Assembly (NCBI GenBank): GCA_002303765.1
Contig: DBCB01000122.1
Span: forward strand, 1 to 52,833
From: Planctomycetaceae bacterium UBA969
GTDB lineage: Bacteria > Planctomycetota > Planctomycetia > Gemmatales > Gemmataceae
Direction: 5' to 3'
DNA length: 52,833 nt
Part shown: piece after piece, positions 15,488 to 48,176 of the stretch
How positions within the stretch are numbered: position 1 is the stretch's first letter
How the letters are laid out: every line of letters starts with the position of its first letter
The notes under the pieces: model-generated
The model's input: only the letters and a program-made list of their open reading frames with translations
Database searches by the model: none
Told to the model about the DNA's origin: nothing
Position numbers and translations under genes: made by a program

Positions 15488-15611
15488 CGCAGCGAGGCGC
15501 TGGGAGGGGCCCCACGCAAAGGGAAGTTGTTAACCTGGTCAGGCCGGAAGGTGCAGCCATACGCAGCGTACCCTTGTGCAGTGGATTCGCCTCTCTCGGC
15601 GCCACGCTGCG
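15488..15611 (+). ncRNA. ffs: Signal recognition particle RNA (small bacterial 4.5S type)
   Basis: Conserved helix-8 core CCUGGUCAGGCC-GGAA-GGUGCAGCC (compare E. coli GGUCAGGUCCGGAAGGAAGCAGCC). Terminal helix GCAGCGAGGCGCUGGGAGG pairs with CCUCUCUCGGCGCCACGCUGC. GC-rich island in AT-rich surroundings. The position upstream of dnaX is a recurrent bacterial arrangement. Ends are accurate to about 5 nt. Confidence 0.8.
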
Positions 15612-27925: not shown

Positions 27926-28360
27926 ATGAAACGATCATTCCCTTTAATATTAAATGTTGCTGCGCTATTTTCCATCATTGGATGTGATGCCTCGCCATTT
28001 CGAATGTATTCTGCGAGAACAGACGCCCATTTTGAAAAAGCCAAAAATGATATTCACGAAGCTGCTAACTCAACTGCTGAGGCCCTTAGCTCTGCCCGGG
28101 TGGATTATGTCAACGAAAGCCAGGCAAAATTGAACGCGTTAGATAAACAATATGTGGCTATCAAAGAGCAAGGGAAAAACGCTACGGGAGAAGCCAAGGC
28201 GGACCTTTATAAACAACTGCAGACCTTGCAAGAGCGCAGAGATGGCATACGCGAACGCTTAGATGAGTATCGTAAGTCTAATGATAAAGCTGCAGAAAAC
28301 TTGCGCACTGGAATCGAGGCAGCTTTGGTGGATTACCAAAACGCCCTAATAGGCAAATAA
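27926..28360 (+). CDS. Hypothetical helical lipoprotein
   Basis: Lipobox FSIIGC after MKRSFPLILNVAALFSIIGC. The rest is A/K/E/Q-rich and predicted helical. No family recognised. Confidence 0.5.
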   Translation: MKRSFPLILNVAALFSIIGCDASPFRMYSARTDAHFEKAKNDIHEAANSTAEALSSARVDYVNESQAKLNALDKQYVAIKEQGKNATGEAKADLYKQLQTLQERRDGIRERLDEYRKSNDKAAENLRTGIEAALVDYQNALIGK

Positions 28361-28409: not shown

Positions 28410-29399
28410 TTACGTCTTTTCCAGCGAAGCTTTCAAACGCACCAATCCTTCTTTGATCGAAACCTTGGGTTCATACCCAAGATCTTTTCTTGCGTTCGAA
28501 ATATCAAACCAATGCGATGTGGATAACTCCTTAGCAAGAAACCTTGTCATGGGTGGTTCGTTTTGTATTCGAAAAAGGCTGTAAGTCATTTCAAAAATCC
28601 AACCCATGAAGTAAGCAAGCGAAACCGGAACACTTTTATCCACCGCCTTGCCATTGCCCGCACGGATAATTTCATTCACCAAATCCCAAAGCTTCCAAGG
28701 TTCACCATTAGAAATAAAGTACGCCTTACCTGAGCATGAGGAGTGAAAAGCTAAGTGATTTAGCGCCAAAAGATGGGCACTTGCAGCATTATCAATATAG
28801 ACAGAATCAACCATAACAATGCGATTACCAATCTTACGAAGCCTGCCAGCCTTGGCGCGGGCCAGAATTCTGGGGACAAGATGGTTATCGCCTGGGCCCC
28901 ATATTAAATGCGGCCTCAATGCCACCGTCGCAAGCGTATCATCATTGGCTTTCAAAACCATTTGCTCTGCAAGGGCTTTTGTTTTTGGGTATGCAGTAAG
29001 ATAACTTTCAGGATAGGGAACCGTTTCGTCAACGCCTTCCATATCGCCATTATTGAAAACCACACTAGGCGAACTGGTGTATACCAATTTAGGAATGCCC
29101 AAGCTTTTACAAACCTCAAGAATGTTTTTAGTCCCCATAACATTGGTTTGGTAATAGCTATTGTAATCGCCCCAAATACCAGCTTTTGCAGCAGTATGTA
29201 TGATTGCATCGCAACCTTGCGCTGCTAGATGAATCGCACCTTTATCGGCCAAATCGCCTTGAAACTGCGCAACACCCATAGCATTCAATTTTGCATATGG
29301 CTTACGGGAAATGCTTTGAACATTATCGCCTCGTGAAACCAACATCGAGCAAATTGCAGAGCCCAGAAAACCGCCACCCCCTGTTACTAAAACTTTCAT
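28410..29399 (-). CDS. oleD: OleD-type NAD(P)H-dependent 2-alkyl-3-ketoalkanoate reductase (3-beta-HSD / epimerase-dehydratase fold)
   Basis: Rossmann VLVTGGGGFLGS, catalytic YPKTK. Start at the ATG at 29399 forms an ATGA overlap with the oleC stop. Last gene of the ole set. Confidence 0.8.
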   Translation of the reverse strand: MKVLVTGGGGFLGSAICSMLVSRGDNVQSISRKPYAKLNAMGVAQFQGDLADKGAIHLAAQGCDAIIHTAAKAGIWGDYNSYYQTNVMGTKNILEVCKSLGIPKLVYTSSPSVVFNNGDMEGVDETVPYPESYLTAYPKTKALAEQMVLKANDDTLATVALRPHLIWGPGDNHLVPRILARAKAGRLRKIGNRIVMVDSVYIDNAASAHLLALNHLAFHSSCSGKAYFISNGEPWKLWDLVNEIIRAGNGKAVDKSVPVSLAYFMGWIFEMTYSLFRIQNEPPMTRFLAKELSTSHWFDISNARKDLGYEPKVSIKEGLVRLKASLEKT

Positions 29400-31033
29400 G
29401 AAAGCCTCCCTGCAGCCCAAACTGCAAGTTCTTCCCGCTTGATTTTAGAATTATGCCTTATGTCCACGGGGAAGGATGGATGGATCAAAAATTTAGTGAT
29501 GTCTTTGGTTTGGGGATAAAGCAAAGCCCTGCTTGCAAGATTGCGTAATAGCTCTTGATCACTGAACATACCCTTTTCTTTTTCGACACAAACAACAGGG
29601 AGTTGTAATCCTACGGGCCCAACCCCGACAAGTGCGCTACGAAAAACACCAGGAACTGAATCAAATATTCCCTCGATAGGGACGGTATGAAAAAGCTTAT
29701 TCGCAGAGAGTACGCGCTGAGATTTCCGGCCACAAAACCAAAGCCTTCCCTCAGAATCGAAATACCCAAGGTCACCCATTCGATGGAGGGTTTGCCCATC
29801 AGCATCAAGAATTTTTGCAAGGTTTGTTTGAACAGGGCGATTGAAATAATGCTTGGTAACAACCGGGCCACGCACTACCAGTTCACCAATTTCACCAGGC
29901 ATAACCCGCAGGGATTCAGACCAATTTTCAATTGCAGCATCATCGATTTTAATAATACGAACATCGATGCCTTCAACAGGCTTACCCACGCAAACACCTT
30001 TCCCTGAAGAGGTGAATTGTTGGGTTTCGGAAAGGATAACGGCACTAGAAATGGTTGCAACAGGAAGGGATTCGGTCGCTCCATAGGGAGTATGCAGATG
30101 AATTCCAGGATTTAATCGGTTGGCGAGATTGGCAATATCTCGAGCGGGCACCGGGGCCCCTGCAGAAAGAATGCGCTTTAGTGTTGGGAAATTAATATCT
30201 TTCGGAAGGCTTGCCAATCTACGAAGCAAAGCGGGAGAAGCAAAAAGATTAGTCACCTTAAAATGCCTGATGGCACCAAGAATCTTGTACGGATCCGCTT
30301 TAGCAGGCTTGGTGAAATCCATTTCTGGAATAACCGCAGTCATACCCAATGCTGGAGAAAAAAGCCCAAAAAGAGGAAAGGTAGGGAGATCAATTTCACC
30401 CGGAGCAATTTGATAAAGGCTTTTAAGAAGTTGGACTTGGGCATGAAATTGTTCATGTTCGTACACCACGCCTTTGGATACCCCAGTGCTACCACTCGTA
30501 AACAAAATAGCAGCGGGATCAACAGCGTTGCACACCAAAGGTGTATTTAAAACGGAGCCTTTTCGTAAAACATCCGACCATCGGGTTCCAAATATGGCAC
30601 CCCCAACAGTGATGGTTTTCCTTATAGAAGTTTTACCCCACCCGAAGAGAATCCTTGCCATTTGAGCAAGCGGAATCCCGATGAATGCATCAGGTTTGAC
30701 TTCTTTAAGGCAGGAGCCTATCCCCTTTAACCCAAGCCCAGGATCAACAACAACAACCGTTGCGCCAATGGTGAAAAGTGAAAAAACAACTTGGAGGAAT
30801 TCGATGCCTGGCTTGACCATAACAGCAACGCGCATTCCAGGTTGAAATCCCTGATCGAGAAGACCACGGGCAGCGGCATCGATGGAATTCTGCAATTGTG
30901 AGAAGGATAGTTGGGCAGAGATTTTTGGGCCGGAAGAAAGGTGCGCACCATTTTGCACAATAACAGCAACGGCATCGGGAAAATTATGCGCCATTTCCCG
31001 GACTAGGTTGGCGATATTAAGCGAGCCCTGCAT
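29396..31033 (-). CDS. oleC: OleC-type AMP-dependent synthetase (olefin beta-lactone synthetase)
   Basis: 545 aa. Adenylate-forming P-loop FTSGSTGVSKGV, YGATE motif. Position between the OleB-like and OleD-like genes. Confidence 0.8.
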   Translation of the reverse strand: MQGSLNIANLVREMAHNFPDAVAVIVQNGAHLSSGPKISAQLSFSQLQNSIDAAARGLLDQGFQPGMRVAVMVKPGIEFLQVVFSLFTIGATVVVVDPGLGLKGIGSCLKEVKPDAFIGIPLAQMARILFGWGKTSIRKTITVGGAIFGTRWSDVLRKGSVLNTPLVCNAVDPAAILFTSGSTGVSKGVVYEHEQFHAQVQLLKSLYQIAPGEIDLPTFPLFGLFSPALGMTAVIPEMDFTKPAKADPYKILGAIRHFKVTNLFASPALLRRLASLPKDINFPTLKRILSAGAPVPARDIANLANRLNPGIHLHTPYGATESLPVATISSAVILSETQQFTSSGKGVCVGKPVEGIDVRIIKIDDAAIENWSESLRVMPGEIGELVVRGPVVTKHYFNRPVQTNLAKILDADGQTLHRMGDLGYFDSEGRLWFCGRKSQRVLSANKLFHTVPIEGIFDSVPGVFRSALVGVGPVGLQLPVVCVEKEKGMFSDQELLRNLASRALLYPQTKDITKFLIHPSFPVDIRHNSKIKREELAVWAAGRLS

Positions 31034-31036
31034 GGC

Positions 31037-31984
31037 TCAACCCCCGGGGTATTTCATGAAGAATTCTTGGATCTTCGCAATGATCGGAGCAGGCGCATCT
31101 TCGAGAAGGTAATGCCCAGCATCTTCAAAGACATTATAATCTGCGTTGGGAAAATGTTTTTTCCATTCCGCAAGAAAGTCATCGTTGAAGATAAAGTCGT
31201 GTCTACCCCAGCAAAATATTTTGGGCGTATCATTCAAATTAGAAAGGCCGGATCTAGTGCCTTCAATAATCTCATACGAGGGGTGCTGCGGATTGATGGG
31301 GATATCCTGCACAAAGCGGAATATAGCAAGTCGATCCTTCCAGCTTGAATAAGGGGAAAGAAAGCCAGCCCGAACTTTGCTATTAAGACCTTTGATAGCG
31401 CAGTATCTTGCAGCGCCCAAGCAAAACCCATTAAACCCGCGCACCATCAACGAGCCAATAACCTTGGATCTGCAGACCTTGAGAGTCCAAGGAAGGGGCT
31501 TGCCTTGCGGAAGGCCAAAACCTGCGGTGTTCAAAAAAACGATACTTTCAATTCTAGATGCATTACGAACGGCCCAAGAGGTTCCGATCATGCCGCCCCA
31601 GTCATGCACTACCAAGCTGATTTTTCCAGTCGGCGCAATATGATTGATTAACTTATCAAGATCGTTGAGCCTGCTTTCAAGCGTGTAGCTGTATTGTTCA
31701 TCGCTAGGCCTATCGGAAAGGCCGCATCCAACATGATCAGGAACAATAACCCGCATGAACTTCGAAAGTGCGGGAATCAAGTTGCGATAAAAAAAGGACC
31801 ATGTCGGGTTGCCATGAATCATAAACACGGGCCTGCCCGAACCTTCATCGAGGTAATGAAGTTTGTGATTGCCAAGGTTTAGATATTTACCCTTGAAAGG
31901 ATAAAGGGAGGGGTTTTCCCTGATCCAGTTTAAAAGGGTTTGGGGAGGACCTGAAACATCGCCAGGCTTATTACCAACTACCAT
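31037..31984 (-). CDS. oleB: OleB-type alpha/beta hydrolase (haloalkane-dehalogenase-like; beta-lactone decarboxylase)
   Basis: HGNPTWSFFYR and the Asp nucleophile elbow VVHDWGG. 315 aa. 7-nt overlap with the oleA stop. Confidence 0.8.
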   Translation of the reverse strand: MVVGNKPGDVSGPPQTLLNWIRENPSLYPFKGKYLNLGNHKLHYLDEGSGRPVFMIHGNPTWSFFYRNLIPALSKFMRVIVPDHVGCGLSDRPSDEQYSYTLESRLNDLDKLINHIAPTGKISLVVHDWGGMIGTSWAVRNASRIESIVFLNTAGFGLPQGKPLPWTLKVCRSKVIGSLMVRGFNGFCLGAARYCAIKGLNSKVRAGFLSPYSSWKDRLAIFRFVQDIPINPQHPSYEIIEGTRSGLSNLNDTPKIFCWGRHDFIFNDDFLAEWKKHFPNADYNVFEDAGHYLLEDAPAPIIAKIQEFFMKYPGG

Positions 31985-33075
31985 TCTACGCCCAGCATAA
32001 GGCAGTTAAGCCCGCTGCCAATCCCTAGCAAGCCGACCCTGTCTCCTGGGAGCAGGAATTTTCGTTCCTCTGCAATCGCTGCGGTCAATGGTAGAGAAAC
32101 TGTACCGATATTTCCTAGGAATGGGAAAGTAGAATAATCCTTGTGCAAAGATATTCCAAGGGCTTTCAAAACCGAATCACGGTGCGGAGCGCCAACCTGA
32201 TGACAGATAACCTTATCGATTGCATCGGGTGTCCAGCCGATCTTACCTACAAAATTTTTCCAAGTGCGCATGCCGAGATCAACACCATACTTCAACACTG
32301 CAACCGAATCGGTAGTCATAAAATGCCTTGCAGCATGAATAACGCCCTGAATGATTTGTTTGGGTGAAGCGCCATCGGGGATAAAATCTGGAATGGGATC
32401 ATTGGTCAGGCCCCATCTGCAAAGGCTATGGTGCTCTGCTGCGCTTTGGGCACTGGCAGCAATAAGCTTTCTTCTTTTTTCACTTGAGAAGGATCCATCT
32501 GTAACAACAACAGCCACTGCGCCGGAACCGCCTGTAAGGGTAGCAAGTGAATCTTTAAAGGTTTCAATATTTTTTCTTTTGAGCAACTCAGCAATCATGG
32601 TGTCGTTGATTTCGCGTGAGGTTTCGCAAGATACAACAACGCCCGCACGAATTTGGCCAAGCTCAATACGGTTGGCAATATCAAGAATGCCATTTAATAC
32701 ACCGAGGCAGGCATTGCTAATATCGTAAACGAGGGCATTACTACCAACGCCCAACTTCGCTGCAACCGAGCAAGCGGTTGCGGGTTCAAATTGTTCTCTG
32801 CAAACAGCAGAGTAAATTACAACTTCGAGATCTTGAGCAGTAACATTAGAACGGTCGAGTGCTTTTCTGGCAGCAAGCGTTGCGCCTTCAGCAACGGAAA
32901 ACCCTGGTTCCCACCAGCGTCGTTCCTGAATACCGGTCCAAGCGAGCAACTGACCTGCATTAAATTTCAATGCTTCATAAACGGGGAGCAATCTGGTTTC
33001 GAGTTCCTCGGTGGAAACTACCACCGGTGGAAGTTCGTAACCAATTGCATCGAGATACACCCGGGAATATTTCAT
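31978..33075 (-). CDS. oleA: OleA-type thiolase (FabH-like; head-to-head Claisen condensation of acyl thioesters)
   Basis: Thiolase fold with active-site DISNACLGVLNG. About 365 aa from the ATG at 33075 (MKYSRVYLDAIGYELPP). The track start 33114 would overlap pfaC by 13 nt. Confidence 0.8.
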   Translation of the reverse strand: MKYSRVYLDAIGYELPPVVVSTEELETRLLPVYEALKFNAGQLLAWTGIQERRWWEPGFSVAEGATLAARKALDRSNVTAQDLEVVIYSAVCREQFEPATACSVAAKLGVGSNALVYDISNACLGVLNGILDIANRIELGQIRAGVVVSCETSREINDTMIAELLKRKNIETFKDSLATLTGGSGAVAVVVTDGSFSSEKRRKLIAASAQSAAEHHSLCRWGLTNDPIPDFIPDGASPKQIIQGVIHAARHFMTTDSVAVLKYGVDLGMRTWKNFVGKIGWTPDAIDKVICHQVGAPHRDSVLKALGISLHKDYSTFPFLGNIGTVSLPLTAAIAEERKFLLPGDRVGLLGIGSGLNCLMLGVEW

Positions 33076-33101
33076 AAAAGTTCTATCCTGAATAATCGCT
33101 G

Positions 33102-36100
33102 TTACGACTTCCAAGCCTTTAGGCGGAAGTCTTTCATTTCATAGATGATCAAGCCATCTACGGATAGTTTGCCATCTGCAACCAATAAACCAGAGGGATC
33201 ATCCCTGTTGGTAATAGTTGCTTCGACTATCACAGTGTTATTATGCGGAATAACCTGCCCGCGGTAAATCCAAATATGTGGTTCTGGGCTTACAATAGGC
33301 AAAAAAGTGTTAACTTCAGGCCAGAAGTCTGTTGCAAGGATTTTCATTAATTGAATCATTGCTTCAAGGCCAAGCGAGCCAGGCCAAACAGGATCTTGAT
33401 AGAAATGTGCTTTAAAAAACCAGTCTTTGGGGTTAACCTGCTTGATTCCCCGGATGTACCCCAGACCGTTTGCACCCCCCTTTTGCTCAAGATATTCCAC
33501 TCGATCCAACATTCTTAAAAAATCATCAGGAAATGGCGGTTCTGCACTGATCAAAGCATCCACACGGGCATATTTCTCAACATTCCACAAACTAGCGCCT
33601 CGAACCCCAACCTGATTTGCAAGAGCATCCTTCGAAAAGAACCCAAAAGTAGTATCCCCCTTGTAGATACTTTTGCCCTTACAAAAAACATCAAACAAAT
33701 ACGATTGCACCACCATCCCCGCAGAGGATGACACGCGTGTAATCTTAACCTTGATAGAAAGTGTCCCTGCATCTGCAAGAACAGGCTCCAGGTAAACAGC
33801 CTTCCCCCCCAGATTACGGAAGGAAAGATCATCCTTGCTAGTAAGCGCAGATCCCAAATAAGCAGCAAGCCAGCCACATGGCTGCAAGGCGATTTCTAGA
33901 AGAATGGCAAAAGGCATTGCTGCCTGTCTTTCAGAACTGAAATACCATTCATCGAGTGGAACATCATACTCTGCAACAATTTCACCCCCAGCAACCATCT
34001 TCCAAGGTTCGCAGTTAACCTCCATGATCCGATCGAGGAATTTATAAGGTGGCCCGGGAAGCCTAGCGATTTTTCTTTCAGTATCAAAAACCTTGTACGC
34101 ATCTCCAAACGCTTCGGAAGGATTGCCTATCGCAAACGCCATAATGCTGGCATTGTCAAAGAGTGGTGTTTTCACTGCACCAGAAATCCCACCCGACCAA
34201 ATTGCTTCAACCGATTCTTTGCTCCATCCTGTCATACGAAGCGACATGGATTTTATCTCAACCACATTTTTACCATCCGCATACATGTATGCATCAACGA
34301 TGGTGTAGGGTTCTGGGCGATAACCTCTTTCCCTTATCAAAACTTCATAGGTAACTTTTTTCGTGGTAGCAGTAACCTGCCCTCTGCAGCGAAGTTTACC
34401 CGTAATCCCAGGCACTGGTTCGAACGCAACATTCGATTTTTCGCCCACCCATCCCATGCGATAAAGAAAAATTCGCAGGGTATGCAGGCAACATTCATAC
34501 ATTAGCGTGCCGGGCATTACCTGATCATCCACAAAATGACAGGTAAGAAACCAATCATCAGGATGAATATCAGCTTCGCCTAAAATACGGCCAAGGCCAG
34601 CGGGCCCGCCTTCAGGTTCAAGAAGAGGCACCCGATGCACAAGCCGCATTTTTCCACCGGGCAAAGTTGCAGGATCCCGAATAGGCAGATTGGCAAACTG
34701 AGCACCAAAGCAAGCCGCCAAATCTCCACTTCGCAATGCATCTAATTGCTCTTCACTAAAAGATTCTTTAACCATTGGAAGCAAAGGCGGAGTTGAAATC
34801 ACATCTTCTTTTTTATCTGCGTTTGCTGAAATAACGATGCCTTTTCCAGCAGCAAGTGCTTCTTCTGTGAAGAAACCTGCGCAACCTTCGCGCATTGCCA
34901 TGAAAGGTTCGCCATTGACGGTGGCATCGTACCAAAATCGAAAAAGATAAGTGTCATTATGGCGGAAGAACCGATCAATGCGAATATCGTAATGAATGAC
35001 TTCGCCCTCTACAGGCAGGGAACGATGGAAAGTAACCTCTGCATCAAGTAGGCGATAAACTGCAAGGCCTTTGGTTTTATGATCGATGCCTAAAAAGCCT
35101 GATAGAAATAGATCTGCCTGCCCCGATTCTACAGCAATGCAAGTTGGGATTCTGCCATGATCCAAATACCATGCACCGGGCAAAACATCGTGCTCGGTAA
35201 TGATTCTTCCCGAACCCATCGAACAAGGTTCGCCCTCGATTGCCAAGATTCTATCCACAAGCATCAAGGGTTCATCTGGTAATCTAACTCGAGTAGGGTA
35301 GGCATCAATTTCGGCATACATCGAGCCCAACACCCCTGCGATATTCCCTCGGGCGTAATGCAAGCAAGCGTTCCGATCAAGAGTTCTAGGTGGTGTCAAA
35401 AGCATTTCAAACGGTTTATCAGAGCTAGTACTATCAGAAACATCCTCAGAAAAAACATCGAACTGCGTATCGCCCAAGTTCACCGATTGCAGCATCTGAT
35501 TTTGAAATTCAACCAGGGCGGTCATCTGCCCAAGAGTTGATTGCGAAAGTTTTAAATAAGCAGCATGGGCTTCCATTGCAGAGTGGTTCATGTTCACAGC
35601 GTGTTCAACGCCATGAAGCTGCAGCGCATTTTCATTTTCCATGAAATGTATTCTTTCTTCCGTAACTTCTTGAGTGCTAATCCAATTCGAACTGGGGGCG
35701 GTGAATGCAAAACCTGTAGAGCCTGTAATCAATCTCACCTTATTACCCTTTGCACTCACCAAATCAGTGGGAGTAAAAAGGAAGCTACAATCCAAAGAGA
35801 CTCGTTCAGAAATCAAGGCAGCGATGGTTTTCAAAAATCCTAGATACTGGCTGCCTCGCATAGTGCTTAGTGATTTAGCAAAATGAGGCCTACCCTTGAG
35901 AATATTAGCAATGATTCTGGTACAAGAAGAGCCAGGTCCCATTTCCAAAAATATGCGTGCGCCATCCTCGTATGCAGTTTCAACAATTTTATTAAAATCC
36001 ATAGTGCTTAAGGCCAGCCCTGTGATCGCTTCCGACGCTGCTTCTTTCGTAACCTCGTAAGCAGAGCCAAACGATGCGCTGTAAACATAGGGCGTTGCCA

Positions 36101-39100
36101 TGAGATTCGTTGGCAGCAAATGAAATCTTCGATAAGCATCAGCAATGGGCCTTGCAGCTTCGCAATGAACCGCTGCAGTTTCAGTGCTTAAAGGAAACAA
36201 TCTGCAGTTCAATTGTTTGACCAATTTTTTGACTTGAGTCGCGTCTCCCCCGATGACACATTCATTTGGGCTATTAATAATTAGCAAATAAACACGGTCA
36301 AATTCGACTAACAACTGTTCAATATCTTCCGGGGATTTTTCCACCAATCCCACAAGCCAATCAGGAACCTTCCCTGGCTCCATGCCCCATGAAAGAGCGA
36401 TTGCCTGCCTTTTTCCAACAAGATCTTCCTTAAAAAGAGTCGAACCTTCCAGCGCATGCCAAAGCCCATCGCGATCAGCCCAATAACCCATTGCAACCAA
36501 TGCGGTTGATTCACCCAGACTATAACCCAGCACCAAATCTGTTTTTATACGTGCAAGCCGCATGATCTCTGCAGTGGCGCATCCAAACGAAACTTGCGCC
36601 ATGATTCGTTCATGGGGCAAAGGCTGGCGAAAAGGCCTACCCTGCCAGTAAAACTCAGGAAGCACCTGTGCTCTTAATTTGAGACTATTTTTATCGTAAA
36701 CTAGATGGCTCTGTGGCCAGCGAAGCGATAGGTCTGCACCCATCGAAGCAAAATCCGCGCCCGAACCTGGAAAAACCATGGCAACTTGCCCTTCGTTTCC
36801 AAGCGGGTTGTGATTATAAAAAACCCTGTCAGCAACAGAAGAATCAAGGGGTTCGCCCTTCAAGGTTTTGAATCCCGCCTCAATGATCAGGGGAAACTCG
36901 ATAAGATTGCAAACGACAAAAGACAATGCAAAGGGTGAATCAGCTAAAGCAAGATTCTTCTCATGCCAAGCTTTTGCCAAAGAAAGCAACGAAGTAAAAT
37001 TGCCCTCTGACGCAAATTGTTTTAAAAGAAAGAGATTAGCTTCAAGAGTAGAGGCATCTTCTGCATAAATTGCAAAAAGTGTTTCAGAGAAAGCTGATGC
37101 AGCCAGATTGGGAGTTGTTGCGCTATTTTCTAATTCAGGTTCTTCAAGCAAGATATGAAACCAAGTACCATCGCTGCCCAAAGAATTAACCCCTGCTCTG
37201 CGTGGGCCATCTTCCCTGTTTCGAAGCCAAGGAGTGGGGCTGAAATTTTCTGCTAGAAATCGTGCGTCCTCATATCTGCGATCAATTTCTGGTTGTTCAA
37301 TAGCATTTCCGGGCAACACTTTCTGGCTTAAACAAAGGCAAGCTTTTGCCAAAGATTGCAAACCTGTTGCAGCCCCCGACCAACCAAGTTGAAACCTGGA
37401 ACAATGAAGCACCGCTTGACCAGAAACCTGCCTAGGGGAAAAGAAATCGCCAAGAGCTCTGGCTTCTGCGGCGTCGTCCTGCTCTAGGCCCGAAGAATTT
37501 GATTCAAGATATTGAATGGTTGCGGGATGAATACCCGAGGAAAGATATGCACTTTCCATTGCTGTTCTACAGGCTTTATCAGATATTCCTTTAGCAATCG
37601 GGTCTTTAAAAGTGCCGATGCCCCGGAGTACCGCAAGGATGGTATCACCGGATTTTTCCGCATCTTCAAGCCTTTTTAAAACAAGGACTGCAGAGCCATC
37701 AGAAGGAAGAACACCCGTCTTCCCCAGAGCTAAAGCAGGGTTTAGAATTGCATCCGTAAGTTTGCCTTCTTTTGCAAGAGGGACAATCATGCGTGGGTCG
37801 AGACAAAAATCTACTGCCCCTACCAAGGCGCTATCGATCTGAAAAGATACCAACGAATCCCATGCAATTTCGAGAGCCCTTAACCCCGAGTTCTCATCTG
37901 CAGCAATTGTAAACGCAACACCGCCCACCCTGTATTCACGGGCGATTCTGGAAGCTGCAATACTTGCAAGTGCGCCCATGGTTCGATCTGCATTCAAGGC
38001 AGGGCCCGCAGCATCGGCATATTCAGGATTTTGATTGTTTGCAAGCCACCACCAACGCAAGTGGTAGTTTGTCGTATTTAAATCAAGGCCTACTCCGAGA
38101 AAGACTCCCATCCTTTGAAAATCAGATTCCTTGAACTTCATGGATTCAAGTGCTTCGCGTGCGGTGTCAAGAGCCAACCCCTGTTGCGGAAGCATCTGCT
38201 CAAGTTCCCTGGGCGGAATTCGAAACGCATCCAGTGGCAACTCCACTGCTTTTTTAGGCCTCCCATTTAGAGTTACATTATGGGGCAAATCCGCAGCAAT
38301 GGCTTCCGATGATTGCACATTCCAGGCATTTACAAGAGGTTCGACTTCAACTTTACCAAACCCTATCGCCCGCTGATAGAAAGGCTCTGTGCTGATATCG
38401 CCTGCGTTTCTGGCTGCAACCGAAACAACTGCAAGTGGGCCATGCTCTGCTTGAGGCTCTGCAACTTGAAGTTTCTGGCCTATCCATTCCTCGACAAGAA
38501 CATGAGCGTTGATGCCACCAAATCCAAAACCGCTAAGCGCTGCTCTGCGAGGAATATCTGCCTGTCTTCTTTCCCAAGGTTGCGCTGTTTTCAAAACCCG
38601 GAATGCAGAAGCATCCATTTTAATCGATGAAGAACAAGCTTCGAAACCTGAAGTAGGTGGAAGTTGCTGACGACTTAAACCAGCTAAAACCTTGGCAAGG
38701 CCGGCACCGCCCGCAGCAGTAAGCACATGCCCAACATTCGACTTTACAGATCCTATAACGCATTGATTAGCTTTATAGGATTCAGATTTCCATAATTCGG
38801 CCATGCTAGAAAATTCAACCCCATCGCCAACCGGGGTACCCGCAGCATGACATTCAATTAAATCGATATCCGAAGGCTTGAGGCCCGATTGCTGATATGC
38901 TGCACGCATGGCACGCAATTGGCCTTCGCTATTGGGGGCTAACAAACCGCCACCGATGTCATTCGAAAGGCCTATGCCCCTGATCACTCCAAGAATTTCA
39001 TCTCCAGCTTCAATTGCATCTTGCAAGCGCTTGAGCAAAAATATCCCTGCACCCTCGCCCACCATCAAACCATCACCACGATGATCAAACGGTCTGCAAT

Positions 39101-39857: not shown

Positions 39858-39869
39858 GCAAAACCCGGT

Positions 39870-42800
39870 CTAGATTGTGGCTGGTTTTCCGAGTCGATTT
39901 TTGCGAAAGGCTCTGGCTAGGGATGCATCTAAAACGCCTTCAACGCCTTCCAAACGCATAACCACGCCAAACACCGGATCAATCATATCAACATCTGCAA
40001 CTGCATGAAGCTCATTGGCTTTGCGAATTTCCAATACAGCTTTAAGCTTTTGGTTGAAGACTGGTTTTCGAAACAATCGAAGGCTCCCAATTCTACAAGG
40101 CAATGATCCCATGCTCTGCATCTTGGAAGTCCAAACAATCATCATTTGCAAAACCGCATCCAACCCTAATGGATCAAGAATCCAACGCTGCCTTAAAGGC
40201 TGCCTTATCCATTCGGAAGGTTCAGGAGCGCCCTTCACCCAGCATGTGATCCCGCGTTCGCCACAGCTTTCAACATTTTCCAAACAATGCATCATCTTGC
40301 CATGAAAAAGAACATCGCGGTAAAGATCATCAATCAAGTATTCGACCTTGGGGGCAGTGATCGATCGAAGATTTGCAGGAGAACCAGGCAGTGCTTCAAC
40401 TAAAAGAATGTCTGCCTTAGCGTGCAATACATCTTTACCGTTATTACGAAAACTTCGGGCTTCCACAGGAATAATAAGGCCATTAGCAGTTGCCCGCGGA
40501 ACGCCGGAAAGATAACGCAATTGCAATGGTTCGGGCTGATCACAAATCACACCATGCAAAATTCTAAAGTCATCACAGCCATGAAATTGATAACCCGGAT
40601 TCTCGTGCAAGGCTGCATGCGCAAGCCATTCCAGCATAATTGCCATCGGCAACACAGGTCTGCCATCAATCACATGATGCTCAAGGAAAGGATGCTCTAA
40701 AAGATCCAGTCTGCGTTCAAAAGTAAGAAGCGCAGGAACTTCTGATTTTAGTTTTGCGGGAACTTCTTCACGTGGGATAGAAGAACCTTTAGCAAGCACA
40801 CTAACTTCAACAGAAGAATTATTTGCGAGTAATTCACACGCAAGCAAAGCTGCCCCTTCCTTCAGAGGAATCAGGCCAATGCCTTCCTTGAGGAAAAGTT
40901 TTTTCAAGCCCTCGCCTACCATGCCGCCTTCCCATGGGCCCCAGTTAAAGGAAACCACACGAGTGTTTTTCAACAACCGAGAGTACTTCTGCGCCATCTT
41001 GTTGAGTACTTCATTCGCCATGGCGTAATCAACCTGACCGGTTCTGCCAAAGCGGGCCGTAGTGCTAGAAAACATCGCCAAGAAATTAAGCTTACGAACA
41101 TCAATACTAGAAAGTATATTTTGCAATCCAGTGACCTTGGTTGCAAAAACGCGCTGGAATTGTTCAGCAGTCTTATCTTCAATCAAGGCATCTGCCAAAA
41201 CCCCTGCACCATGAATAATGCCACACACAGGCCCCAACTCAGTCTGAACTTCAGCAAGAATTTGGGCAACGGAACCTGCATCGCGAATATCTACCGAGCG
41301 ATAAAGCACCTTAGAACAACTAGCACTAAGCTTTTCCAAGTTCGTTCTTACTTCGCGATTCGCAAGTATCTGTTTGCACTGTTCGCCGATGGCTTTGGGT
41401 GAAAGGGATGCGCCAGATCGGGCTGCAAGTTCTTTCTTAATTTCCATTTCGGAATTCAACTTCATGAGCCAATCGGGCTCATTGGTAGGTTCAGGGCTTC
41501 TGCCCAAAACTAAAATTGAAGGTGCATGAAGATCAGCAATCGCCTGGGCACATGCTGCGGTAACACCCCGGGCCCCTCCGGTAACCAACACTAACTTGCC
41601 TTCAAGGTTTGATTCAGTCTGGGAAAGTTCGACATCCGTAACATCAAGTTGGATGGTTCTTCTGCCCGAAGAATTGATAGCTACTTCAATTGGCCCATGA
41701 AACAAAATTTCGTCTGCGATTTTCTCTGCTGCATCACTGATACCAATGCGAGGATCAATATCGATGGCACGGGAACGGATAAGCGGCCATTCGCGGGCTG
41801 CAGTTTTCACAAGACCAAGCAAACCAGCATCCAGAGGATTGCGATCATCTGCAAATGATTCAAAACCCAAGGCGCCATCAAGCCTCGTAACAGCAAAAAG
41901 GATGGATCCTGAAGATGAAGATTCCGAGCGCAATGCTTTGCCAACCGATTGCACAGCCATTAAAGATTTCAAAAGAAAATCTTCATTTGAATGCAAAGGA
42001 GAAGAAAGGATAATGAGCCCACCCAATCGATCCCAAGATGCATTAATTACTTCATTCAATCCAATTTTTTCAGCTTTGAATCCACGTTTGATAATAGCAT
42101 TACAAACTTCGATCGATAATTCTGCATCTGAACCTGTGACGAGTATTTGTTTGTCAATACTGAAGGTCCCGTGGTTGCCAGCCACCTTAGCCAACCTAGG
42201 AACCAACCGGTCAAGCCCGGTAGGAATCGAAGGCTGGCTGAATGATTTTTTTGCGGGGGGTGCCTCGTGTGCCGTTTCTTTTTGCTGAACACCTCCACCA
42301 TCAAGATGATTCAAAACCTCGCGAAGTGTATTTAAAGTCCCCAAGTGTTCGGGCTTTACAATCGGAGCTTCGGGCAACTTTTCCTGAATTGCTGCTAGTA
42401 TTTCCACCCGCTTGATCGAATCAATTCCCAAATCAGCATCCAACGCCATGTCGAGTTCCAACATTTCCGTTGGGTAGCCAGTCTTCTCAGAAACAACCTG
42501 AATTAAAACAGATTCCGCTGAGCTTGTTTTTCTCACCACAACAGGCGCAACAGCAACAACTACTGGTGCACTATTTTTAACTTCAACTTTAATTTCATCA
42601 ACTTTGGAGCCCAGAAGAAATTCCGCAACTTGGCGCAGCGTGTTGAGAGAGCCTAGATGTTCTGGCTTAACGATTGGCGCTTCGGGCAACCTCTCTTGAA
42701 TTGCTGCCAAGATTTCGACTCGCTTGATGGAATCGATGCCAAGGTCTGCATCCAAAGCCATATCGAGTTCAAGCATTTCGGTAGGATAGCCAGTTTTTTC

Positions 42801-45800
42801 AGAAACCACCATCATCAAAACCGAAGCGATGGACCCAATTGGAGGAGGGTTTTGGGCAGATAAAACCGAAGTCGCAACAGGTGCAGCAACCACGGGCGCA
42901 GCAACCACAGGCGCAGCAACAACTGGTTCAGGTGCGGGCTGGGTTCTTACAATCGCAGGGGTAGGAACGGGTTGCGTTCTTACAACCGCAGGTGCAGCAA
43001 CCGTAGGCGCTTTGTAAGGTGCAACAGGTTTTGCTACAGGAGCAGAAACTGTTTCTTTGACAAAGGAAGTTTGAGGTGCAGGGGTGTTTGAAACAACTGG
43101 TTGAACTTTTTCTTCGAATTTGAGTTGAGGCATCGCAGTGTTCAAACCCAATGAGGCTTGCAAAACAATTTGCTGCTGTTGGATAAGAGCATGCAGATTT
43201 CGCTGCGCAGATTCCTGACCTTCCAGAAACATCTTGTGAATCTGAGAGGATTGTTCTTGCAATTTTTGCAGCATATCGAGGCTTGCTTTAGTTACATCAA
43301 GCACACGACCTATGCCTTCTGAATTAATATTTCTATTTGACATCGGTACGGATTTCACTTCCTGATTTACTTGCGGGGTCATGGTTGGGGTTATAATTTT
43401 CGGATTTTCAAGCGGTCTTGAAGAACTTAATGGAGATACAACTTTTGTTTCAATCACTTTTTCTGCAACAACTTTAACTGGAGCAACTAACACTGGCGCA
43501 ACTTTAGCAACACTTGGCGTCTTGGGCTCCACTTTATCCGTTTTGGTACGAACATAATTAGCACCGGTCAACGCAACAGTGAATCCTGGTTTTTCAACAG
43601 GCGCATCAACAAAGCCCTTATCCCACTGGGCAAGATCTACCTTAAGGCCCAATGCGCTAAGCTTGCATAACAATGCTGCGAGATCGTACTCGCCTGCTTT
43701 CTTACCTTGGCTAGCATCAAGCGAAATCGCATTATGCTTTTGGCCCTTAAGTATTTCAGATACCAAGCCAGTTAGTCTGCCACCAGGCCCGATTTCAACA
43801 AACGTGGTTGCCCCATCGCGGTGCATAGCAGAAATCATTTGACTGAATTCAACACTTTTCGCCAACTGGCCTGCAAGAATTTTATTCGCAGCAACATTTT
43901 CCGTTGGATAAACAGAGGCAGTCGAGTTTGCGTAAACAGGCACCTTGGTTGAATTCCACTGAATGTTCGATTGGATAAACTTAAGGAAAGGCTGCTCAGC
44001 ATTGGCGACCATCGGGCTGTGGAATGCGCCACCAACCTGAAGCTTCTTCGCTTTAAATCCGTTGGCTGCAAGAACTTTTTCTGCAAGATCAATCTGATCA
44101 ATCGGCCCTGCATAAACAATTTGGTTCAAAGTGTTTCGGTTGGCAGGAACTAAAGAAATGCCATTGGCTTGAAACAAGGCTGCAACATCTTTTTCAGGAG
44201 CGAGCACTGCAATCATGCCACCATTTCCGGTAGAGGCATGAGCCATGCATTTGCCACGTTGGAATGCGAGGTCAAGAAACTGCTCATCGGTGAAAGCCCC
44301 TGCACAAGCGAGCGCAGCAAGTTCACCAAAGCTATGCCCGGCTGTTAAATCGGGAGTCAAGCCAAAGCGACTAAGAACCTTCATTGCACCCAGTTCAATC
44401 ACGCCCAATGCAGGTTGTGCATTCAGGGTGTCCTGCAAGCGTAAAAGATCCTGCTCTGCCTCTTTAGGATCGAAGGTGGTCTGAGGATAAATCAGATCGA
44501 CCAGCAATGTTGCTTCTGCTTGATTTTTTAGTTGTAGTGCATGGGCCTTTTCGAAGACATCCAGCATTTCGGGGAACATACAGGAAAGATCAAGAAGCAT
44601 TCCTGGGTACTGTGCGCCCTGACCACTGAAAAGAAAAGCGAGTTTGCCCGAGTGTTGCCCCTGCTCGATGAAAATACCTGGGGGAAGAGGTTTATCTTTC
44701 TGAAACTGCGCCAAAGACTCACGAGTTTTTTGCAATACTTGAGCGATATCGGATTCGCCCTTGCGGGTAATCACTAACAAGCGCCAATCCATGCGGTGAT
44801 CAAAACTCGAACGCGACTTAAAGCAATCTCTGCGCCATTGCTCCCACTTGGGTTGAGCATTCAAGGCATCGAGTTTTTGCATCAGTTCGTTTTTGGAAGC
44901 AGAGCAAATCGAAAGAATCTGTGTATTACCATCCCAATCAGGTTGCGATTTTGTCTTCTGATATTCTTCGAGTACACAATGAAAATTACTGCCACCAAAA
45001 CCAAAAGCACTGACAGCGGCCCTGCGTGGATGATTGGGGTTTGAAATCCAAGGGCGCTTTTGGCCAGAGAAATAGAAGGGGCCTTTGCCACGGTTCATGC
45101 CTTCAAGAGGCTTTCGCACTTTGATGCTAGGGGGCAAGACTTTATTGTAAAGAGCAGCAGCAGCCTTAAGCAAACCAGCAGCGCCCGCAGCAGCTTTCGT
45201 ATGCCCGATCTGAGATTTGATAGACCCAACTGCACACCAGGAACCTTTCTTGCCTGACTCTTGAAACACTTTTAAGAGGGAGGAAAGTTCGGTCGCATCA
45301 CCGACCTTGGTGCCGGTGCCATGGGCTTCAACCATATCGATGGAATCGGGGGAAATTCCTGCTTCTTGGTAGGCAGCTCGCAGTGCGTTCATCTGGCCTT
45401 CAGCGCGGGGGGCATAAACAGCGCCACCCTTTCCGTCGCTTGAAGTACCAACCGAACGAAGTACTGCAATAATGTTGTCGCCAGCTTTTTCAGCATCAGA
45501 AAGTCGTTTAAGAACAAAAAGGCCAAGGCCTTCGCCAAGTACGGTGCCATCGCCCTCTGCATCGAAGGGGCGTGAATGGCCTGTGGGAGAAAGAGCGGGA
45601 GTTTTGCTGAAACACATGAACATGAAAATATCGTTGAAGGTATCAACCCCGCCCGAAATAACCATATCGGATCGATGCGACCAAAGCTCTAGTGCTGCAA
45701 GATGCAAAGCACCAAGCGAGCTAGCACACGCAGCATCGACAACGCAGTTGGTGCCACCGAAATCAAAGCGGTTTGCAATTCTACCAGCGACAACATTCCC

Positions 45801-46385
45801 CAATAGCCCAGGGAAGGAATTTTCCTGCCAAGGAACATAGGAGGCACTAATGTCATCGATTATTTTTTGAGTTGTGGCATCATCAACGCCAGCCTTTGAA
45901 AGCGCCTTGCGCCAGCGGGGGTGGCCAAGCCTTGCACCAAGGGGAATAACGAGTTCGAGAGTACCAGTAACACCGAGAATAACACTTGCACGCGAGCGAT
46001 CTAAAGGTTTCAAGCCAGGCTTTGGGTCACCAATACCGGATTGGTATCCAGCATGTTCAAGCGCTTGCTTTGCAGCCATCAAGCCGAGTAATTGCGATGT
46101 ATCAGTAGCTTCAAGGTTGTTAGGGGCAATGCCAAAGTCGCCTGGTGAAAAATCAACAGGAGAGATGAACCCACCGGTCTGACTATAAACCTTGTCAGGG
46201 AATTTGGGATCTTTGTCGAAGTAATCTTCGGGGTTCCAATGAGAATCGGGAATTTTGGTAATACCATCTTTGCCACTTTTCACGAAGCTCCAGAAAGCTT
46301 CAAATCCCTCGGAGCCAGGAAAGAAACAACCTGCTCCAACGATGGCCAATGGTTCCATTTTCATTTTGGGAGTTGCATCACTCAT
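39870..46385 (-). CDS. pfaA: PUFA-synthase subunit PfaA-like: KS - MAT - 2x ACP - KR - PKS-type DH
   Basis: KS: [9 protein letters not shown] (Cys220), [33 protein letters not shown] (Ser685). Two ACPs with [12 protein letters not shown] (Ser1219, Ser1323). KR: [11 protein letters not shown] and [19 protein letters not shown]. Confidence 0.9.
   Translation of the reverse strand: [2171 protein letters not shown]
42315..42809 (-). repeat. Tandem ACP-domain duplication inside pfaA (312-nt period)
   Basis: aa 1193-1253 and 1297-1357 are almost identical ([39 protein letters not shown][R/K][13 protein letters not shown][S/T]LNTLR). The nucleotide copies (42627-42809 and 42315-42497) differ at many third-codon positions. 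Confidence 0.85.
42874..42992 (-). repeat. In-frame micro-repeats encoding the Pro/Ala/Val linker upstream of the ACPs
   Basis: Three 15-nt units ACCACNGGCGCAGCA (42874-42918) encode AAPVV x3. GTTCTTACAA[T/C]CGCAGG repeats at a 33-nt period (42943-42959 and 42976-42992), encoding VRTQP. Confidence 0.7.
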
Positions 46386-47839
46386 GCGGGCACTCCTGCG
46401 TAACCTAGTTGCTCTTTAAGTTTTTCGTATTCGACAGGCAATGGCGAAGGGGTCCCCTGCTTTGCCAAACCGAGCAAAGAGGAGATACGGAATTGCATCA
46501 ACTGCGTTGCGCCATGCAATAGATTCAACGCAACAATACCAGCTTTGCGATTCTCGGGTTTTTCTAGGAAGGAGCCTTTGACCCATTCGTTGAAAGCCCC
46601 CATCGCAGGGCCACACCAAATTTGATAATCAACAACTCTGGTCGATTCGCCTGAATTAGCCCATCGTGAGGATTGGCCCAAATACCATCGGAAGACCAAA
46701 GCCATCTTATGCTTGGGATCTTTATCTGCGCGGGTAACTTGTTCGGGGTCTCGCTTGATGAAGAATTCTTTGGTCTGTTCCCAAATTTCTTCGAGGGAAG
46801 CTCTGAAGATCGTCTTCTCTAATTGCGCCTTTTCCAGCGCAGGAATAAGATCGATAGAAGCGTAATCTCTGTAGGTTTCGTAAAGCTTTTGAGCCCGCAT
46901 GGGGAACATGGTGCCGCGCTTTAAAACCTGTACCTTCACTCCCATTTCAAACATGTCTGCTGCAGGTGCCATCGCTACATCGGCCTGCCCTGATTCTGCA
47001 AGCATTTTACGAACCGTTGTGCAAGAACCTGATTCAACACACGATTGATTGATCGAACCTGAAACGACATATGCAGCGCCCATAATAAATGCCGCTGCAA
47101 CAGATGCTGGTGTCGAAATACCACCCGCAGCGCCAACCCGTAATGGTTGCGAATAGTTGTACTGCGCTTGCAACCGATCTCGCAATGCAATGATGGTAGG
47201 GACAAGTGTGATTGCAGGTCTGTTATCGGTATGGCCACCAGAATCAGCTTCAGCAGTGACATCTTGAGCAACAGGAACCAAAGAAGCCAGCTTGGCTTGC
47301 TCGGGGGTTAGCTTTCCTAGTTGAACTAATTCGTTAACAAATCGCTCTGGGGCAGGGCTGAAGAATTTGGTGGCAACCTCGATGCGCGATACTTTACCAA
47401 TTACCCTGTTTGGCGTAACAACATTTCCCTTGGCATCACGGTATATGCCATGCAGTCTGTAAAGAATCAAAGGCAGAGTTAAATCAAGATAAGCGGAGGC
47501 TTCCACCAAGCGAATTTCTTCGCGAAGAAAAAGCTCAGCGATCGCCATTTCATGACGGGGTTCATTGGGGCTGTGAATAAGATTAAAGCCAAAAGGCTTG
47601 TTTGGTACTTCAGATTTTAAACGCTGGATTGCATCTTCAACGCGGGAAAGAGAAAGGCCAGCAGCACCAAAAAAACCAAGCATGCCGGTGCGTGCCATTG
47701 CTGCAACTAATTCAACCGAAGCAATGCCATTAGCCATCGCCCCTGCCAAATAATTGTATTCGAGACCCAGATCGTTACGGAAAGACGGGTCACCCAGATC
47801 TTGCGGCCTGATCGTCATCGCCGAAGACCCTTTGAGCAA
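46382..47839 (-). CDS. pfaD: PfaD-type enoyl reductase (FMN / 2-nitropropane-dioxygenase-like fold)
   Basis: DLGLEYNYLAGAMANGIAS..., GAAGGISTP. About 480 aa, typical of PfaD. ATGA overlap with the pfaA start (46382-46385). The start is either TTG 47839 (preceded by GGAGGTG 13 nt upstream) or ATG 47818. Confidence 0.9.
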   Translation of the reverse strand: MLKGSSAMTIRPQDLGDPSFRNDLGLEYNYLAGAMANGIASVELVAAMARTGMLGFFGAAGLSLSRVEDAIQRLKSEVPNKPFGFNLIHSPNEPRHEMAIAELFLREEIRLVEASAYLDLTLPLILYRLHGIYRDAKGNVVTPNRVIGKVSRIEVATKFFSPAPERFVNELVQLGKLTPEQAKLASLVPVAQDVTAEADSGGHTDNRPAITLVPTIIALRDRLQAQYNYSQPLRVGAAGGISTPASVAAAFIMGAAYVVSGSINQSCVESGSCTTVRKMLAESGQADVAMAPAADMFEMGVKVQVLKRGTMFPMRAQKLYETYRDYASIDLIPALEKAQLEKTIFRASLEEIWEQTKEFFIKRDPEQVTRADKDPKHKMALVFRWYLGQSSRWANSGESTRVVDYQIWCGPAMGAFNEWVKGSFLEKPENRKAGIVALNLLHGATQLMQFRISSLLGLAKQGTPSPLPVEYEKLKEQLGYAGVPA

Positions 47840-48068
47840 TTAAACACCCCGCCACCTCCCCACAAAGTTACGGAAAAAAACGGACTGCCTGACCTCATTA
47901 GCCATCCTTGGCAGCTCCAGCCAACCCTGACTGGAAGCTAATATCATAACGCCCCATAGCGCACTCTTCCACAAGGCATTTGCAGGAATGCCAATATCTT
48001 TTCGCTATAACCGTAACAACCTACCAAAAGCCCCTTGACCTAAAACATTAAAACAAGCATGATTGTTG

Positions 48069-48099
48069 ACGTAAATCATTATATAGTAATATTTTACGT
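48069..48099 (-). promoter_or_regulatory. Candidate promoter/operator of the pfa-ole operon: minus-strand TATAAT bracketed by a 7-bp inverted repeat
   Basis: ACGTAAA (48069-48075) and TTTACGT (48093-48099) flank a minus-strand TATAAT (48083-48078). The -35 (TTCTCG at 17-nt spacing) is weak. Confidence 0.3.
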
Positions 48100-48176
48100 T
48101 CGAGAAAGCAGAGTTTCTTGCGTTTAGATTAGCTGAATGGGAGAGCTCTGGGAAATTTCAAATATTCTTGCTTTTC

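Follow-up and report, generated by a model that had tools for sequence, protein, structure and literature searches.

Does a polyunsaturated fatty acid (Pfa) synthase that is encoded directly upstream of the olefin-biosynthesis genes oleABCD supply these genes with their substrate, or do two lipid pathways simply lie side by side? The question is raised by a block of seven genes on contig DBCB01000122.1 of Planctomycetaceae bacterium UBA969 (family Gemmataceae), of which the whole stretch from position 1 to 52,833 was analysed and is referred to below as the 52.8-kb window. The evidence suggests that the block, a compact Type I Pfa cluster in tandem with oleABCD, is likely to be a dedicated Pfa-fed route to a long-chain polyunsaturated olefin. 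The enoyl reductase PfaD, together with PfaA and a PfaBC fusion protein, would assemble a polyunsaturated acyl chain in repeated rounds on the two acyl carrier protein (ACP) domains of PfaA. OleA would then condense two such chains head to head to a 2-alkyl-3-oxo acid, OleD would reduce this product, OleC would close the reduced product to a beta-lactone, and OleB would decarboxylate the beta-lactone to a cis-olefin. By analogy with Geobacter and Shewanella, the product, and with it the chain length, is probably hentriacontanonaene-like (C31:9).

Gene content and organization of the block

The block extends on the minus strand from position 47839 to 28410 and consists of seven intact co-directional genes, with the products PfaD-PfaA-PfaC-like-OleA-OleB-OleC-OleD, which were found in the list of open reading frames (ORFs) at exactly the coordinates given in a preliminary description of this DNA. 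The first gene, pfaD (46382-47839), encodes the 485-aa enoyl reductase subunit of the Pfa synthase, and is followed by pfaA (39870-46385; 2171 aa), with the domain order ketosynthase (KS), malonyl acyltransferase (MAT), ACP, ACP, ketoreductase (KR) and dehydratase (DH). The third gene is a pfaBC-type fusion (33102-39857; 2251 aa) with the domains KS, chain length factor (CLF), acyltransferase (AT), DH and DH. The oleB, oleC and oleD genes are contiguous with oleA in the order oleA-oleB-oleC-oleD: oleA (31978-33114; 378 aa, or 365 aa from the ATG at 33075) encodes a putative head-to-head condensing thiolase, oleB (31037-31984; 315 aa) an alpha/beta-hydrolase of the haloalkane dehalogenase type, the predicted beta-lactone decarboxylase, oleC (29396-31033; 545 aa) a beta-lactone synthetase of the ANL superfamily, and oleD (28410-29420; 336 aa) an NAD(P)H-dependent 2-alkyl-3-oxoalkanoate reductase.

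The seven genes are tightly packed, and the junction lengths of the preliminary description were all reproduced when recomputed. The pfaD stop codon overlaps the pfaA start by 4 nt (ATGA), pfaA and pfaBC are separated by 12 nt, oleA and oleB overlap by 7 nt, and 3 nt lie between oleB and oleC. Two junctions depend on the choice of start codon: pfaBC and oleA overlap by 13 nt, or are 26 nt apart if oleA starts at the ATG at 33075, and oleC and oleD overlap by 25 nt, or by 4 nt (ATGA) if oleD starts at the ATG at 29399. The internal ATG codons at 33075 (oleA), 29399 (oleD) and 47818 (pfaD) are probably the true starts, because the profile alignments of OleA, OleD and PfaD begin only at residues 14, 8 and 11, respectively.

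Two ATGA overlaps, a 7-nt overlap and gaps of no more than 26 nt are typical of co-translated operon genes, and the block may well be transcribed as a single unit. The preliminary description had gone further in stating that there is no room for internal promoters, which holds for intergenic promoters only and not for promoters inside coding sequence. Such promoters, for example in the 3' end of pfaBC, could drive the ole genes separately, in which case the seven genes would not form one transcription unit. This arrangement is compatible with the sequence alone, and unrelated genes (YjdM/PhnA, toxin-antitoxin and Fic) that separate oleB from oleC in several Geobacter loci indicate that the block tolerates interruption; against the close packing it nevertheless appears unlikely. 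Promoter-like matches within the block were also fewer than in shuffled sequence (13 versus 25.1 +/- 4.7), in a consensus scan that is uninformative. The sole sizeable non-coding gap is the 337-nt intergenic region 5' of pfaD (47840-48176, minus strand), which on reading the sequence is AT-rich and includes TATATAAT. It is presumed to be the promoter region of the block, although the sigma-70 consensus scan, the same uninformative method, gave no minus-strand match in it. A consensus terminator scan, likewise uninformative, gave nothing convincing 3' of oleD.

The Pfa synthase

The proteins of the block fall into their families without ambiguity, and each of the catalytic motifs that had been listed earlier for the Pfa and Ole proteins was verified at a sensible position. 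PfaD matches the TIGR02814 pfaD_fam model with 651.5 bits (cut-off 449) over profile positions 2-442 of 444, and the Pfam domains NMO and FabD_helical_ins are also matched. PfaA scores 1423.6 bits against TIGR02813 omega_3_PfaA (cut-off 1010). Its domains, all on the minus strand, comprise the KS (44847-46358), with DAACAS (Cys219), HGTGT and KSQIGH, the MAT (43707-44645), with GHSFGE at residues 683-688, two ACPs (42615-42821 and 42303-42509), each with LGIDSI, at Ser1219 and Ser1323 respectively, the KR (40845-41612), with TGGARGVT and YAMAN, and a DH of the PS-DH type (39939-40730), in which HVIDGRPVLP (HxxxGxxxxP) occupies residues 1904-1913. The tandem ACPs that mark Pfa synthases are thus present in two copies. 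These two ACPs (42303-42821) are near-identical repeats, with about three differences over a 60-residue core and about 80% DNA identity.

The third protein had been described as PfaC, with a KS, a CLF and two FabA-type DH domains. All four were found again; a PfaB-type AT domain had been overlooked. Pfam identifies two ketoacyl-synt domains, Acyl_transf_1 and FabA in this protein. On the minus strand, the KS (38418-39809) has an intact triad of Cys202, His337 and His377, while in the CLF (37140-38351) the corresponding Cys, His and His are replaced by Glu, Asn and Trp. The AT (35784-36797; approximately residues 1021-1358) carries GYSLGE at residues 1111-1116, with the serine at residue 1113 (codon 36519-36521), and is followed by two FabA-type DH domains at 34239-34769 (His1774) and 33135-33530 (His2151).

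PfaB has been distinguished from malonyl transferases by a Tyr-Ser signature and the loss of a Gln-Arg pair (PMC12895367). Both features are seen in the AT domain of the window, in which the Tyr-Ser signature lies in GYSLGE and other residues (GSGAD, and Arg to Gly) stand in place of the Gln and Arg found in malonyl-specific MATs. Its best solved relative is the PfaB of Shewanella baltica (9RY8; E 1.5e-22), with LGYSLGE aligned to LGYSMGE, whereas FabD-type enzymes match at 9e-8 or weaker. Given the Tyr-Ser pair, the Gln/Arg loss and the match to 9RY8, the protein called PfaC earlier is therefore a PfaBC fusion.

The Ole proteins

For the thiolase, the preliminary description had named grouping with FabH as an observation that would speak against OleA. 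The comparison came out clearly on the side of OleA. The protein matches the OleA structures of Xanthomonas campestris (3S21, 3ROW) with E 4e-49 and 171 bits, compared with 5e-19 and 72 bits for the best FabH, and scores 467 bits against NF006720 (cut-off 285) compared with 78 bits against TIGR00747 fabH. The motifs FEPATA, NACLG (residues 134-138), HQVG and GNIG are equivalent to Glu117, Cys143, His285 and Asn315 of the X. campestris enzyme, and in an alignment of 21 sequences these Glu, Cys, His and Asn columns are invariant among the window protein and 19 relatives. Some of the homologues in JGI data are named acyl-CoA:acyl-CoA alkyltransferase, which is the enzyme name of OleA. The window protein is thus an OleA and not a FabH, with head-to-head condensation as its predicted reaction. 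Relative to the X. campestris protein, a 29-residue insertion follows LCRWG (residues 237-265; about 32320-32406, minus strand). Within the Pfa-linked OleA clade, the loop at this place can have anything from about 11 to about 55 residues, with the longest forms in loci of the Gemmata/Fimbriiglobus type.

The three remaining proteins are the expected partners of OleA. OleB belongs to Pfam Abhydrolase_1, its best relatives in the PDB are haloalkane dehalogenases (E 5e-32), and its HDWGG at residues 127-131 aligns with HDWG, the nucleophile motif of DhaA-type dehalogenases, in which the aspartate is the nucleophile. OleC scores 672 bits against NF006754 (cut-off 478) and contains TSGSTGVSKG; its top specific models are those of the olefin beta-lactone synthetase, NF045786 (606 bits) and NF045785 (572 bits). 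For OleD, the top NCBIfam models are the 2-alkyl-3-oxoalkanoate reductases NF042422 OleD (455.7 bits) and NF042423 (430 bits). It also matches Pfam 3Beta_HSD with 204 bits and has GGGGFLG and, at residues 144-148, YPKTK.

Transfer of the chain to OleA

Two routes may be considered by which the chain would pass from the synthase to the thiolase: directly from ACP to OleA, or by way of the PfaB-type AT. The preliminary description had argued for direct hand-off from the lack of a thioesterase, an acyl-CoA ligase and a phosphopantetheinyl transferase (PPTase) in the operon. The thioesterase and the PPTase were sought with Pfam among the 31 principal ORFs of the window, each of at least 139 aa, and the PPTase additionally by a motif scan (FNxSH and WxxKEAxxK) and by tblastn with a pfaE-like protein of Geobacter. 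Among these 31 ORFs no stand-alone thioesterase gene, no pfaT-like gene and no separate acyl-CoA ligase was detected with Pfam. The tblastn search gave no match in the window at E <= 1, and by motif scan and tblastn a pfaE-like PPTase was found in none of the planctomycete loci scanned. The absence of a PPTase and of a stand-alone thioesterase was thus borne out. The argument drawn from it was not, because the PfaB-type AT inside the cluster offers an alternative release route. The lack of a ligase is in turn tempered by OleC itself, which is an adenylating enzyme of the ANL family.

Direct hand-off is favoured by published experiments. OleA has been proposed to take 16:4n-3 directly from the PfaA ACPs, and the loss of FadD in an Escherichia coli fadD mutant did not prevent OleA from converting Pfa products to the 31:8 ketone, which argues for the direct use of acyl-ACP (Allemann et al., 2019; PMC6463001). 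Direct transfer as such is therefore not a new idea, having already been put forward from these experiments. The same pathway could alternatively run with an indirect hand-off, in which the AT (Ser1113) unloads the finished or an intermediate polyunsaturated chain from ACP and either passes it on as acyl-enzyme or acyl-CoA, or frees an acid that is re-activated elsewhere, so that OleA would use acyl-CoA as in Xanthomonas. An AT with an intact Tyr-Ser dyad lies within the cluster; as a terminal acyltransferase for long chains, PfaB exchanges acyl groups between coenzyme A and ACP, and some of its homologues hydrolyse long acyl chains (PMC12895367). The OleA of X. campestris, the closest solved relative, is reported to act on acyl-CoA. 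Set against the fadD-independent result and the lack of a separate acyl-CoA ligase among the window ORFs, the indirect route is a possibility that we regard as the weaker of the two.

Relatives, synteny and points against the proposal

A search for OleA homologues returned, as its best 120 matches, close planctomycete-type relatives throughout, and the OleA cluster at 90% identity has 106 member sequences on 88 contigs. Synteny was surveyed in the 80 genome loci from which the closest relatives of OleA come (numbered with the prefix L below). Of the 71 loci with enough flanking sequence, 55, from several phyla, have the end of a PfaC C-terminus no more than 400 nt upstream of oleA, mostly at less than 100 nt. 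OleB is encoded no more than 400 nt after oleA, between oleA and oleC, in 63 of 74, and the oleABCD order of the window was also observed in most related loci. The carriers include Gemmataceae, Isosphaeraceae (Tundrisphaera lichenicola P12 and Aquisphaera insulae JC669), Gemmata sp. (L036), many Geobacter and Desulfuromonadales, among them G. argillaceus, and metagenome-assembled genomes (MAGs) labelled Elusimicrobia, Hydrogenedentota, Sumerlaeota and Nitrospirales. The earlier suggestion that the synthase feeds the Ole pathway fits this conserved adjacency of pfaC and oleA.

The distances between Pfa proteins co-vary with those between Ole proteins (Mantel r 0.90-0.96). The window proteins are about equally far from those of Gemmata and Geobacter (OleA about 0.63 in both), which fits a movement of the whole block between phyla, and the pairwise identity of the PfaC KS to its Geobacter and Gemmata homologues is 0.51-0.55. 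At closer range, the window DNA matches contigs of freshwater Gemmataceae/Planctomycetota MAGs at approximately 93.5-94.3% identity over 21 kb, and the flanking genes are the same in both. Six loci (L002, L003, L015, L028, L054 and L056) come from MAGs labelled Candidatus Kuenenia, Alcaligenaceae or Bacteroidales; they are 86-94% identical to the window at the DNA level or clearly of planctomycete type, and are probably mis-binned or mislabelled.

An opposing interpretation is that the two parts are adjacent and yet separate in function, the synthase making a membrane polyunsaturated fatty acid or another secondary lipid while OleABCD condenses chains from type II fatty acid synthesis (FAS II). 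Co-regulation of membrane-lipid genes or a shared horizontal transfer, and not substrate channelling, would then account for the adjacency. In five Gemmataceae loci (L011, L013, L014, L015 and L017), up to 10 kb of sequence upstream of oleABCD contains no pfa gene, a stand-alone product has been raised for pfa homologues (Shulse & Allen, 2011; PMC3098273), and the PfaB-type AT could serve the incorporation of chains into phospholipids. The adjacency kept across phyla and the co-variation of the Pfa and Ole parts argue the other way. So does Shewanella, in which OleA condenses exclusively the Pfa-derived chain although FAS II is present (PMC6463001), and so does Geobacter bemidjiensis, which has the same tandem layout and makes C31:9, as the report of Sukovich et al. 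(2010) is cited in a later paper (PMC4882568). On this balance a separation of the two functions seems improbable.

The proposal of a dedicated Pfa-fed olefin route nonetheless has to be weighed against several observations. The five loci without adjacent pfa genes encode the nearest Gemmataceae relatives of OleA outside the genus-level lineage of the window (67-71% identity), so the coupling of pfa and ole is not obligatory in this family, and the fusion must therefore have been gained or lost within it. PfaA has two ACPs compared with four to six in canonical polyunsaturated fatty acid synthases, such as those of Type A pfa clusters (PMC3098273). No PPTase, that is, no ACPS or Sfp-type domain, was found by Pfam among the 31 window ORFs; the PPTase needed to activate the PfaA ACPs is presumably encoded in another part of the genome. 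Both OleC and OleD fall below the equivalog cut-offs of their families (606 and 572 compared with 900 and 850 bits for OleC; 456 and 430 compared with 580 bits for OleD). Since these specific models are by far the best ones, the profile scores indicate divergent members rather than non-members. The PfaB-type AT could also divert the product to other lipids. Lastly, the organism is known from metagenome bins only; the gene content, the intact catalytic residues, the tight packing and the conserved synteny are demonstrated here, and co-transcription, the identity and chain length of the product, and the hand-off route are inferred.

Comparison with known systems

The layout of the block is not new, contrary to what the preliminary description had implied. 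Shulse & Allen (2011) defined the "Type I" pfa cluster, in which pfaB and pfaC are fused, from Geobacter, Pelobacter, Desulfuromonas and Gemmata obscuriglobus. They pointed out its frequent linkage to ole genes, proposed that it supplies precursors for olefin synthesis, and recorded that hentriacontanonaene is made by G. bemidjiensis (PMC3098273). The tandem order pfaD-pfaA-pfaB-pfaC-oleA-oleB-oleC-oleD-pfaE was later given for G. bemidjiensis Bem (Yoshida et al., 2016; PMC4882568). What the window adds is therefore a new host lineage alone, the central idea of an olefin feeder and that of the hand-off having both been published.

Like the Type I clusters, the window has a pfaBC fusion with linked ole genes, and the pfaC-oleABCD order is also shown by the Gemmata sp. 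locus (L036). By its fusion and its ole linkage the cluster is provisionally assigned to Type I, a type that is itself defined by KS phylogeny. The Gemmataceae, the host family, are not known as obligate anaerobes. Type I clusters, in contrast, show a statistical association with obligate anaerobes, and in most cases a PPTase gene lies immediately next to them (PMC3098273), whereas the window cluster has no PPTase nearby.

The closest layout is that of G. bemidjiensis, with which the window shares the gene order, pfaD in first position, the pfa domain set including the PfaB-type AT, and oleABCD directly downstream; between Geobacter-type loci and the window the amino-acid identity is 47-65% per protein. 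Three differences were observed. The host here is a planctomycete from freshwater, and not a metal-reducing anaerobe. In eight Geobacter-type loci, namely L033 (14548-15288), L034, L039, L041, L043, L046, L050 and L052, oleD is directly followed by a pfaE-like PPTase gene (FNxSH, WxxKEAxxK), which is lacking in the window. Several Geobacter loci, unlike the window, have inserts between oleB and oleC. A zinc-ribbon gene with a YjdM/PhnA domain lies there in L041 (11968-12306), L043 (11965-12339) and L046 (13029-13367), and toxin-antitoxin (BrnA), DUF559 or Fic genes in other Geobacter-type loci. It was considered whether these inserts are the missing accessory enzymes, and this was rejected, as YjdM/PhnA, toxin-antitoxin, DUF559 and Fic proteins are not thioesterases.

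In Shewanella oneidensis MR-1 and Photobacterium profundum SS9, the Pfa synthase likewise supplies the chain (16:4n-3) that OleA condenses. These bacteria have separate pfa and ole operons, a separate pfaB, four to six ACPs, a gene pfaT for an accessory thioesterase, and eicosapentaenoic or docosahexaenoic acid of the membrane as a co-product, whereas the window has a single block, a fused AT and two ACPs, with no pfaT-like gene detected. The C31:9 of Shewanella requires Pfa products, and in P. profundum the two operons are adjacent, the clustering of oleABCD with pfa being dependent on the host (Allemann et al., 2019; PMC6463001). X. campestris, in turn, provides the closest solved OleA (3ROW, 3S21 and 4KU2), and shares the four catalytic residues and the OleB, OleC and OleD partners. 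Its OleA is fed with acyl-CoA from FAS II instead of by a Pfa synthase, and does not have the 29-residue insertion of the window protein.

Conservation of OleA

OleA is the slowest-evolving protein of the block and is under unusually strong purifying selection. Compared with five close relatives, oleA (31978-33075) has a nonsynonymous divergence (dN) of 0.000-0.008 and a synonymous divergence (dS) of 0.16-0.54, giving an omega (dN/dS) of 0-0.016, while the six neighbour proteins in the same relatives have omega values of 0.04-0.10 at similar dS. At a greater distance, the identity of OleA to the protein of L010 is 84%, as against 57-63% for its neighbours, and OleA is more conserved than each other segment of the block in 91-98% of 465 locus pairs. 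Recent transfer and an overlapping gene were both considered as the source of this high identity and were rejected, since oleA and its neighbours show the same synonymous divergence. As dS is not reduced, the conservation reflects constraint at the protein level.

A possible reason for this constraint is that OleA docks both to ACP and to OleBCD. A more far-reaching picture may be drawn, in which the Pfa synthase serves hydrocarbon formation wholly, a Pfa-Ole assembly holds OleA docked on the PfaA ACPs and OleBCD at once, the conservation of OleA is the footprint of this docking, and the seven genes without a PPTase form a minimal 'polyolefin cassette' that is passed as a whole from phylum to phylum. 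In this full form the picture is speculative, and we regard it as rather doubtful.

Distribution and use

The Type I pfa and oleABCD cluster is extended by the window to an abundant, uncultured freshwater lineage of the Gemmataceae, and its compact seven-gene form is widespread in Planctomycetota (Gemmataceae and Isosphaeraceae) and in Geobacter-type bacteria. These observations may be of use for the annotation of MAGs, for reading polyunsaturated hydrocarbons as lipid biomarkers in lakes, and for picking cultured carriers (Tundrisphaera, Aquisphaera and Gemmata) for experiments. No new mechanistic question is raised, the coupling of Pfa to Ole and the direct hand-off being already in the literature.

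Other features of the window

The 3' boundary of the block is formed by a small convergent ORF on the plus strand (27926-28360; 144 aa) with a lipoprotein-like N-terminus, which lies outside the pathway. Its Pfam match to DUF2205 is below threshold (22 bits, cut-off 26.7). In L001, a close relative, oleD is followed by the same ORF and by the ClpB gene. Elsewhere the window contains typical planctomycete genes, for example those with DUF1501 and DUF1559.

An Rfam scan of the whole window gave only one RNA, remote from the block. This is a bacterial small signal recognition particle RNA (RF00169, 44.8 bits) at 15503-15598 on the plus strand, which overlaps the called TTG start (15527) of the dnaX ORF; dnaX therefore probably begins at a later start codon. 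A 1008-aa protein encoded at 1695-4721 on the plus strand has a Ser/Thr protein kinase domain at its N-terminus and an FGE-sulfatase (formylglycine-generating-enzyme-like) domain at its C-terminus, and a second, stand-alone FGE-sulfatase gene lies at 8996-9907.

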